Origin: Escherichia phage WPEC3
DNA: 64,000 nt
Sequence record: PV611058
Reading direction: 5' to 3' (one strand)
Shown piece by piece: positions 16,664-17,129 of this stretch. The position numbers were made by a program, and so were the translations under genes. How positions within the stretch are numbered: position 1 is the stretch's first letter; each line of letters opens with the position of its first letter. The notes beneath the pieces are model-generated. The model was given only the letters and a program-made list of their open reading frames with translations, had not been told where the DNA came from and searched no databases.

Positions 16664-16907
16664 TTTCTTATTCCTTAGTTACCAGGGGAACCGCTCCCCC
16701 TATGCAAAACATTATACGCGTTTAAAAACTAATTGCAAGTATTTTAATAAAAAGTATTTGAAAAAATAGTTGTTGACAAGTGCATCCAGTACTGGCATAA
16801 TTACTACATCAAGACGAAACAGTCACTAACCCACCGGGTGCCGAGATCCGTCTATTAAATGATTCAGTACTGAAAAAGTAACGGGGAGTTATTATCTCCC
16901 CGCGTTG

Positions 16908-17129
16908 TTATTTTGTAAGGTATAAACAGAAGTCGCCTTTATTTGCTACGCCGCCAGTGTAACGCGATGAATAGTTAGAAACGTCCTGGACTTCTGCTAT
17001 TACCAGGGTATCATCATTCAATTCGTCGCAGAAGCAAACGGCTGGATCTTGTACGCCGATTTTGTCAGCATGTTCCCGCATAGATTTCACCAGTGCTTCC
17101 AGTTGGGAAAGAGTAGTGATATTAGCCAT
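16908..17129 (-). CDS. hypothetical early protein (73 aa)
   Basis: ATG at 17129 (MANITT) after SD GAGGA and PeSL. Confidence 0.55.
   Translation of the reverse strand: MANITTLSQLEALVKSMREHADKIGVQDPAVCFCDELNDDTLVIAEVQDVSNYSSRYTGGVANKGDFCLYLTK

Follow-up and report, generated by a model that had tools for sequence, protein, structure and literature searches.

Promoter-led elements with a conserved 5′ module, repeated through the early region of Rak2-like jumbo phages, may specify early non-coding RNAs

Introduction

Several small RNA (sRNA) families, such as Qrr1-5, OmrA/B and LhrC1-5, consist of multiple copies with a shared invariant segment. The HK022 put RNA and the lambda nut sites (boxA/boxB) are small promoter-proximal hairpins in phage early transcripts, and RNA anti-CRISPRs are promoter-led solitary repeat units in phages. 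Promoter-early stem-loops (PeSLs) are repeated cassettes of T4-type phages (PMC2839356, PMC4122927), and the terminal repeat of Pseudomonas phage PA5oct specifies two non-coding RNAs, ncRNA001 and ncRNA002, of 236 and 451 nt, which make up 2-5% of the phage reads (PMC7318152). Here, we describe a repeated, promoter-led element in 64,000 nt of DNA from Escherichia phage WPEC3 (sequence record PV611058), a Rak2-like jumbo coliphage; this whole stretch is called the window.

The element is a single repeated non-coding unit, which occurs in ten copies in the window, in both orientations. After every promoter, a conserved module of ~50 nt (52 nt) forms the 5′ end of the predicted transcript. From the sequence evidence, we consider it very probable that this is a real element at the RNA level, transcribed from its own promoter. 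Our favoured reading, to which we assign a probability of roughly 45%, is that the copies constitute a multi-copy family of immediate-early non-coding RNAs, which would act via the conserved 5′ module. There is a modest chance that this promoter-led phage non-coding RNA or leader motif has a function of a new kind.

PeSLs are the closest described architecture. Like them, the element is a small repeated intergenic module in a plastic early region, where a terminator stem-loop is combined with an early sigma-70 promoter; in the minus-strand copies, the -35 box lies inside the upstream terminator hairpin, by which the two are joined in one cassette. It is set apart by its conserved transcribed module, with a covarying hairpin and a near-invariant core. 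Moreover, the element differs by its occurrence in both orientations and in fixed convergent pairs, and no role in recombination was seen.

In logic, the multi-copy sRNA families and the promoter-proximal antitermination RNAs are closest, although we see no sequence match between the element and any of them. With Qrr1-5, OmrA/B and LhrC1-5 it shares the presence of several paralogues per genome, with their own promoters, one invariant stretch and an otherwise diverged sequence, while its solitary copies in gene blocks consist of a promoter, ~100 nt and a terminator. However, most copies of the element are without a terminator of their own, and it is encoded in the terminal repeat of virulent jumbo phages. 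As in put and nut, a hairpin with a purine-rich 6-8-nt loop on a short stem (here called P1) is promoter-proximal; unlike there, the hairpin comes first and the conserved linear or hairpin core second, the P1 stem is missing in ~10 copies, and copies occur in both orientations. Compared with the put and nut sequences known to us, we see no boxA-like motif in the element. RNA anti-CRISPRs resemble it as short promoter-led structured RNAs that are repeated in phage genomes, and they act as decoys, as the element may do; to our knowledge, the core is unlike the type I-E and type I-F repeats of the hosts. The PA5oct transcripts provide a parallel as highly transcribed non-coding RNAs from the long terminal repeat of a more distantly related jumbo phage, but they are longer and not homologous to the element.

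One element in two orientations

A sequence-only reading of the window had pointed to four promoter-led elements on the plus strand and to a second conserved element, thought to precede plus-strand terminators. The four plus-strand sites were confirmed: -35 and -10 boxes are located at 16773-16801, 19184-19212, 21122-21149 and 21338-21365, and behind each promoter, CAT and a small hairpin lead to CCCA..GGGTGC (at 16830, 19241, 21178 and 21394). The sequence ascribed to the second element is present at 1401-1478, 4151-4233, 7422-7499 and 11965-12047, but it is not a separate element. GATACAC..GCACCCTGTGGGCT is the reverse complement of ..AGCCCACAGGGTGC..GTGTATC, and the minus strand shows TTGACT-N17-TATTAT before it; therefore, there is one element in two orientations, and the four sites are minus-strand copies rather than sequences preceding plus-strand terminators. 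The hairpin AAAGGGA(C/T)TGAC..TCCCTTT is present at these sites as described, and the alternative that had been offered, a terminator and promoter module read on the minus strand, is right for the copies at 1417, 4167, 7438 and 11981, where the terminator hairpin of the upstream gene holds the promoter's -35 box. The copy number had been given as at least four, which is the number on the plus strand; the total is ten (four plus, six minus), since the minus copies at 9756-9840 and 19282-19363 had been missed. All ten are located at 1.4-21.4 kb and none at 21.5-64 kb.

A search of the window for the core CCCACCGGGTGC with at most two mismatches yielded 12 matches, where 0.83 are expected and none of 100 shuffles reached 12. 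Ten of these are elements, named here after the position of the core match with m for the minus strand (1417, 4167, 7438, 9772, 11981 and 19298) and p for the plus strand (16830, 19241, 21178 and 21394). The other two come from a single palindrome (15770-15782), one per strand, and the covariance model does not match it. The two computational checks that had been proposed bear the element out: compensatory changes among the copies strongly support an RNA hairpin (see below), and a covariance model matched all ten window copies (E from 5.6e-16 to 7e-6), with no further match in the 64 kb.

The promoter is of the sigma-70 type, TTGAC(A/T)-N16-17-(C/T)AT(A/T)AT, and near-consensus (10-11 of 12 positions) in nine of the ten window copies. 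In all ten, the A of the conserved CAT is the seventh base after the -10 box and is the predicted start; the first transcribed bases are ACATC(A/G)AGA. The module consists, in this order, of the start, hairpin P1, a linker (YUAR), the core CCCAYMGGGTGC and a 16-nt tail, while 21 to 28 nt separate the -10 box from the core, depending on the copy. P1 begins 2-6 bases past the start; it has a stem of 3-5 bp and a loop that nearly always ends in AA (for instance, GAGAAA, GCGAAA, AGAUAA or AGAACAA). The core counts 12 bases, is almost invariant and forms a CCC/GGG hairpin, P2, of the form R-CCC-(3-4 nt loop)-GGG-U, then GC. The consensus of the tail is RGARNU-SYRYCYAU, in which YRYCY is able to pair with GGGUG instead of CCC (P2′). 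The window copies and the features directly attached to them are:

16773..16857, plus strand: copy p16830 (E 1.6e-8); promoter 16773-16801 with -35 TTGACA (16773-16778), spacer 17 and -10 CATAAT (16796-16801), 11/12, with TG; predicted start A16808; P1 GAC/GTC 16813-16824; core 16830-16841; tail ends at 16857
16882..16902, both strands: bidirectional terminator hairpin GGGGAG-N7-CTCCCC, where the minus-strand gene 16908-17159 terminates and, by prediction, so does the RNA from 16808
19184..19268, plus strand: copy p19241 (E 6.9e-11), plus half of a convergent pair; promoter 19184-19212 with -35 TTGACA (19184-19189), spacer 17 and -10 CATAAT (19207-19212), 11/12, with TG; predicted start A19219; P1 19224-19235; core 19241-19252
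19282..19363, minus strand: copy m19298 (E 2.3e-13), minus half of the convergent pair 19184-19363; -35 19363-19358; -10 19340-19335; predicted start A19328; core 19309-19298
21122..21205, plus strand: copy p21178 (E 7.3e-6); promoter 21122-21149 with -35 TTGACT (21122-21127), spacer 16 and -10 TATAAT (21144-21149), 11/12; predicted start A21156; P1 CGC/GCG 21161-21172; variant core CCCAGGGGGTGC 21178-21189
21222..21246, minus strand: decayed partner of p21178, AGGGTGCGGGAGTGTATCCT then T7, intact core and promoter gone; P2′ hairpin with T-run flagged terminator-like
21338..21421, plus strand: copy p21394 (E 5.8e-11); promoter 21338-21365 with -35 TTGCTT (21338-21343), spacer 16 and -10 TATAAT (21360-21365), 9/12; predicted start A21372; P1 AGTC/GACT 21376-21389; core 21394-21405
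1401..1485, minus strand: copy m1417 (E 3.6e-9); terminator hairpin of the upstream gene 1485-1458, including -35 TTGACT 1478-1473; -10 1455-1450; predicted start A1443; P1 stem absent (A-rich CATAGACAAAAACTAG); core 1428-1417
4151..4240, minus strand: copy m4167 (E 5.6e-16); terminator hairpin 4240-4213 with -35 4233-4228; -10 4210-4205; predicted start A4198; P1 TGAG/CTCA; core 4178-4167
7422..7506, minus strand: copy m7438 (E 7e-8); hairpin ~7506-7479 with -35 7499-7494; -10 7476-7471; predicted start A7464; P1 stem absent; core 7449-7438; Chi sequence next to it at 7411-7418
9756..9840, minus strand: copy m9772 (E 5.9e-9); -35 TTGACA 9840-9835; -10 CATAAT 9817-9812; predicted start A9805; P1 GACG/CGTC; core 9783-9772
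11965..12054, minus strand: copy m11981 (E 3e-15); hairpin ~12054-12027 with -35 12047-12042; -10 12024-12019; predicted start A12012; P1 TGAG/CTCA; core 11992-11981

A signal scan called minus-strand terminators at 1485-1458 and 4240-4213, together with promoters at 1478-1450 and 4233-4205 of which the -35 box lies within the hairpin. The same terminator-promoter module is found at 7506-7471 and 12054-12019.

Genomic setting and distribution

The window matches Asteriusvirus jumbo coliphages, best of all Ecwhy_1 (95.6% identity) but also phAPEC6, PBECO4 and 121Q. From position 1 to ~27.2 kb, its credible genes are all small and all on the minus strand. In relatives with annotated ends, the homologous block sits inside a direct terminal repeat of 20-22 kb, which makes the block studied here the early end of the genome and probably the one that is injected first. 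Records of close relatives with terminal repeats begin ~500 bp beyond window position 22000. Most genes in the block own a standard early cassette (repeat family D1; at least 28 copies on the minus strand in window 1-22200), which reads AAAAAGTACTTGCAA-N16-TATAATGTTTTACATCGAGAGGGG... and leads into the open reading frame (ORF) through a GC-rich 5′ hairpin and then a ribosome-binding site. Its parts are a UP-like A-tract, AGTACT, TTGCAA-N16-TATAAT, the start at ACATCGAGA and the 5′-terminal hairpin; the first transcribed bases are similar to those of the element. Terminators are dense in the block, with one per gene cassette. Examples of the standard early cassette are:

16394-16421, minus strand: standard early cassette
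17180-17207, minus strand: standard early cassette
18307-18334, minus strand: standard early cassette

A 211-nt query centred on the convergent pair was used to find relatives, and seven early regions were taken besides the window (eight loci). The query matches every Asteriusvirus, the Klebsiella phages RaK2, K64-1 and Muenster, Cronobacter phage GAP32 and Pectobacterium phage CBB, and also Erwinia Eneladusvirus phages, Yersinia phage fHe-Yen9-03 and Salmonella phage Munch; between genera, it aligned only via its element parts. The covariance model, built from 14 in-register seeds, gave 85 matches at E <= 1 in a search space of 217 kb (model E-values being rough), of which one (E = 0.64) is spurious, leaving 84 copies in eight genomes. 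In 78 of these 84 copies, a promoter with at least 9 of 12 matching positions stands in register, against 4% of random positions. Each sampled early block has 8-13 copies, counts that cover 14-29 kb per genome plus an exact-pattern scan of whole contigs. The family spans Asteriusvirus, Alcyoneusvirus, Mimasvirus and Eneladusvirus as well as Salmonella phage Munch, and includes all sampled enterobacterial Rak2-like phages.

In IMG/VR, an exact-pattern scan followed by the model returned significant matches only in Rak2-like jumbo contigs; in whole-genome contigs, the matches are confined to one block of ~20 kb or, in CBB, to both terminal repeats. GAP32 and CBB carry copies at syntenic positions. 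One locus was compared between the window, CMSTMSU and 30 further Asteriusvirus genomes; every one of them has the element there, without presence/absence polymorphism. PA5oct 1-30000 yielded no significant match to the covariance model (best E = 0.49, without the core). A core-like sequence, CCCACTGGGTGC, is located in locus L003 at 25277-25288 (Klebsiella phage Muenster ~18-29), 17 nt from the PhageTerm-predicted left end; it has no promoter or P1.

We also considered a copy in bacterial hosts, which the phages might mimic, and rejected it: an 18-mer scan of 185,579 bacterial species, each represented by a single genome, produced 21 matches, about the number estimated for chance, and none passes the model. 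Two of the 18-mer matches, both in Erwinia, sit in a homologous protein-coding stretch, which may be CinA-like. With Rfam release 15, there were no matches at the gathering score in the whole window and none at E <= 5 in 16000-22600, and ARAGORN found no tRNA or tmRNA gene in the window. The core sequence was not found in the literature searched, and the genome papers of CBB and PA5oct are silent on the element. In public records, element sites are either unannotated or carry small hypothetical proteins or no more than promoter and terminator signals. In phage 121Q (138540-138742, e.g., gene 270) and several other Asteriusvirus records, hypothetical genes lie directly over the convergent pair. 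Several of the small “hypothetical protein” calls over element sites are probably spurious.

Evidence for structure in the transcript

The statistics for P1 were obtained from an alignment fitted to the covariance model, and an independent hairpin finder run on unaligned sequences gave the same stems. The P1 positions are paired in 93.6% of cells, against 25-54% with a slid partner. All four pairs vary on both sides, with 131 compensatory cells against 46 in shuffles, and the aligned stems come in ~39 different combinations, several of which contain gaps or are unpaired in part. The non-Watson-Crick pairs in P1 comprise 11 G.U and no A.C; hence, the helix fits the transcribed strand only, a pattern that indicates selection on P1 at the RNA level.

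The CCC and GGG of P2 are nearly invariant, with two independent CCU/AGG double changes, and the loop is variable in sequence and length (ACA, AUA, ACC, AUU, ACG, AGA, UAUA, UCAA, AAAA). P2′ is pairable in 91% of cells, against 35-65% with a slid partner, mostly through G.U pairs. P2 and P2′ are mutually exclusive because they have the GGG in common. We grade the P2′ pairing in the tail as plausible only, because transition bias could yield part of the pattern.

Other candidates were rejected. For a helix joining the linker YUAR to CYAU in the tail, there is no covariation, A/G at column -1 being independent of column 22. A pseudoknot between the P1 loop (AGAUA) and the tail (UAUCU) fits, judged by eye, the AGAUAA loop subtype only. 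A leader peptide or other small ORF finds no support either: only 39 of 66 copies have the start-codon G in the ATG/GTG-like triplet of the tail, and later “codons” are not conserved as amino acids.

The copies could be functionless remnants, either decayed cassettes minus their ORFs or spare promoters that soak up RNA polymerase. Their first bases, ACATC(A/G)AGA, do resemble those of standard early promoters, the transcripts of which also begin with a 5′ hairpin. This reading, already disfavoured, is hardly credible: a 12-mer that is near-invariant in ~80 copies across several genera, with compensatory evolution adjacent to it, does not look like decay.

The same data bear on a function at the level of DNA, where the units would be PeSL-like terminator/promoter cassettes serving as punctuation and as homology patches for early-gene shuffling, or where the 12-mer would be the site of a DNA-binding protein. 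PeSLs have been described as small composite terminator/promoter sequences mediating indels (PMC4122927). In the window, the early block is made of repeated promoter cassettes (family D1), the units lie precisely between the terminator of one cassette and the next promoter in either orientation, and four minus copies (1417, 4167, 7438 and 11981) share a nearly identical terminator-plus-promoter module of ~90 bp (family D14). Nevertheless, we consider a DNA-level function decidedly unlikely, as P1 pairing survives many compensatory changes with G.U but never A.C, which argues for selection on the transcript. The variable distance between the -10 box and the core is unlike that of an operator, and a core that is invariant across genera where the flanks are unalignable is more than a recombination patch requires. 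The syntenic copies in GAP32 and CBB and the lack of polymorphism at the single locus examined speak against it as well.

Orientation, termination and pairing of copies

In the orientation used here, all eight loci have their early genes on the minus strand. The solitary minus copies are co-directional with the genes, and the -35 box of a standard early promoter follows 30-70 nt later; their transcripts are predicted to run into the next gene as a longer leader. Eleven of the 14 solitary plus copies in the eight loci are located inside early-gene blocks and have a GC-rich hairpin within ~25 nt past the tail, which is the end of the convergent upstream gene (in the window, 16882-16902, flagged on both strands). 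The other three occupy the Asteriusvirus end region (window 21154 and 21370, and Ecwhy_1 counterparts); the two window copies among them, p21178 and p21394 (promoters at 21122 and 21338), lie in ORF-free DNA, without a clean terminator. The stand-alone sRNA layout, with promoter, non-coding body and terminator, is thus displayed by the plus solitary copies in gene blocks and not by the minus copies.

Short plus-strand transcription units antisense to the early genes had been proposed from the sequence alone. They do look promoter-led and non-coding, with no plus-strand ORF of at least 20 amino acids in the two units examined (16775-16900 and 19185-19390). However, it is at 16773 only that a terminated RNA of ~100 nt is predicted (~95-105 nt from 16808 to the terminator at 16882-16902), on account of the bidirectional terminator just after p16830; 21122 and 21338 are without a clean terminator, and 19184 is half of a convergent pair. 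The antisense orientation was not supported either. Since the plus solitary copies in gene blocks are intergenic, their RNA would not be antisense to coding sequence unless transcription reads through; this applies to the RNA from 16773, while that from 19184 would be antisense only to its convergent partner.

The main rival to an RNA family is a cis-acting leader, where the nascent two-hairpin RNA would stay on its own polymerase and bring about put-like processive antitermination past terminators or pauses. Co-directional copies would then give rise to long polycistronic RNAs, and antisense copies would damp upstream early genes. The module is always at the extreme 5′ end, right after a strong promoter, in an early region packed with terminators, and the plus solitary copies in gene blocks, which meet a terminator so soon after the tail, have the layout of an antitermination test site. 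Furthermore, the exclusive P2 and P2′ resemble a switch, and a few copies have P2′ plus a T-run that is flagged terminator-like; in most copies, though, no U-run follows P2′. We see no resemblance in sequence or size to HK022 put or boxA/boxB, as far as those sequences are known to us, and there was no Rfam match at E <= 5 in 16000-22600. Read-through would be superfluous because each downstream gene has its own promoter, and 29 of the 84 copies are on the plus strand, including half of each pair, and would drive transcription head-on into early genes or each other. We therefore regard antitermination as unlikely.

Convergent pairs number 15 in the eight loci and divergent pairs zero. The cores of a pair span exactly 69 nt where measured (the window, Ecwhy_1, GAP32 and CBB), and Eneladusvirus also has pairs, with the same unit spacing of 116-118 nt. 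The pair in the window folds as a long hairpin (z = -6.2), the inverted repeat of the GAP32 pair extends to 25 bp, and p21178 has a decayed partner. These observations suit a reading in which the pair is the functional unit, with opposed promoters and a fixed 45-nt spacer, acting as a barrier or yielding a double-stranded RNA or hairpin for RNase III processing or as a signal; solitary copies would be leftover half-sites. We find this improbable, because 54 of the 84 copies are solitary; in these, too, the core is invariant, P1 covaries and the promoter is intact, which means that they are under selection on their own. In addition, the P1 stems of the two halves differ; therefore, the arms are not simply complementary copies.

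A candidate family of early RNAs

In a multi-copy early RNA family, host RNA polymerase would transcribe the units right after DNA entry. The 5′ module would be abundant, given the 8-13 copies found in each sampled block and the duplication of this block by the terminal repeat. The module itself would be the functional part, since it is the sole feature common to all copies, while the downstream context varies with orientation: plus solitary copies would yield discrete RNAs of ~100 nt that end at the bidirectional terminator of the neighbouring gene, and in the case of minus copies, read-through transcripts would begin with this module. P1 would shield the 5′ end and display its A-rich loop, and the invariant CCC/GGGUGC may be recognised by a conserved partner, which could be a complementary RNA or an RNA-binding protein from host or phage, with P2 and P2′ as alternative states of this site. 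A trans-acting mechanism, as a multi-copy early sRNA or a decoy, is put forward tentatively.

A more specific version, which we deem unlikely, is a decoy RNA for host takeover or anti-defence that would operate in the first minutes, from the first-injected terminal repeat, by capturing a factor conserved across Enterobacterales. Candidates for this factor are RNA chaperones, ribonucleases and immune proteins that sense RNA, and P2 and P2′ could be the bound and free states.

Several points weigh against the RNA family. Every promoter, start site and 3′ end described here is predicted. Some 60% of the copies (minus strand, co-directional) are without their own terminator, which is unusual for a trans-acting sRNA family, and the strictly conserved spacing of the convergent pairs is left unexplained by this reading, as it is by the cis-acting leader and the DNA-level function. 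The P1 stems are short, and ~10 copies, including 1417 and 7438, have no stem but keep an A-rich, GAAACAA-like stretch, which suggests that the A-rich sequence may matter more than the helix. Covariation is unable to choose between P2 and P2′ because both are nearly invariant, and the T/C and A/G variation in the tail is also expected from transition bias alone. Pairing with stable host RNAs was rejected, as the duplex energies with E. coli 16S, 23S, 5S and tRNA-Glu were no better than those of shuffled queries. The 18-mer scan and model revealed no host copy for mimicry, and no RNA-binding domain was found among the ten largest early ORFs. In the latter, a GNAT acetyltransferase domain scored above the curated cut-off, and there were sub-threshold matches to protein kinase, Tox-PL-2 and HVO_A0114.

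Other features of the early region

As regards the ORFs 8838-9194 and 4252-4893 (both minus strand), one carries the GNAT acetyltransferase domain (E 4e-9) and the other the weak protein-kinase match (E 0.005), the latter in agreement with the annotations of Muenster and Munch, which list a “putative protein kinase”. The early gene 16427-16663 (minus strand) has 70-86% DNA identity to genes of the ~140-kb phages W70, A5-4 and UPEC06, which we take to be rV5-like; this similarity would mean that unrelated coliphage groups have exchanged genes.

In the 64 kb, there are 291 occurrences of the palindrome AGTACT, which is densest at 1-28 kb, with 154 against ~7 expected in 1-23 kb and 105 against ~13 in 27-64 kb. 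It is found just 5′ of -35 boxes (AAAAAGTACTTGCAA), in promoter spacers (CAGTACTGnATAAT, giving an extended -10 TG) and, as (C)AGTACTGAA, ~20-30 nt 3′ of most copies of the element, in every genus; it may be bound by a regulator or be the target of a modification.

There are 11 copies of the E. coli Chi sequence GCTGGTGG on the minus strand (ten within 1-22 kb) and three on the plus strand, where a rough estimate of the expectation is well below one per strand in 22 kb:

1363, 1586, 3165, 5065, 7411, 8659, 9609, 10119, 14938 and 21899, minus strand: Chi
15000, 21911 and 28744, plus strand: Chi

A facing Chi pair, CCACCAGC-ACAA-GCTGGTGG, is located at 21899-21918, ~600 bp from the presumed genome end. 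This pattern suggests protection of the terminal repeat against RecBCD.

Beside the presumed end, an ORF-free stretch of ~1.9 kb (20.9-22.8 kb) contains ~20 tandem 8-bp units at 21593-21750 (CGTCTAGC / CATCCAGC and variants), which could be iteron-like or packaging-related. In the same area, RYRCCCAAAATYC is present four times on the plus strand within less than 600 bp (21196-21212, 21408-21424, 21733-21749 and 21759-21775); the first two are also the tails of p21178 and p21394, whereas the other two are not attached to an element. Another strong promoter, the fifth on the plus strand (21463-21491, TTGACA-N17-GATAAT, 11/12), without element, is directed toward the presumed genome end, and a hairpin, GCGGGGAAACTATCCCCACGC, follows at ~21528-21548. 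Finally, a 77-nt repeat family (..CAGTACTATCAAACTATGTCAATAGTACTG..), which looks like another promoter-type cassette, has two members 292 bp apart that are 99% identical (13974-14050 and 14266-14342), with others at 2060, 10317 and 10579.

Implications

Rak2-like phages (121Q, PBECO4, phAPEC6, RaK2, K64-1, GAP32 and CBB) are in development for therapy, and their early regions are annotated almost wholly as hypothetical. The element is the most conserved nucleotide sequence of the early region across genera, and it is neither annotated nor described in the sources searched. If it is an abundant early RNA, it would represent a new class of phage regulatory RNA, which is experimentally accessible and for which an alignment of more than 80 sequences is at hand.

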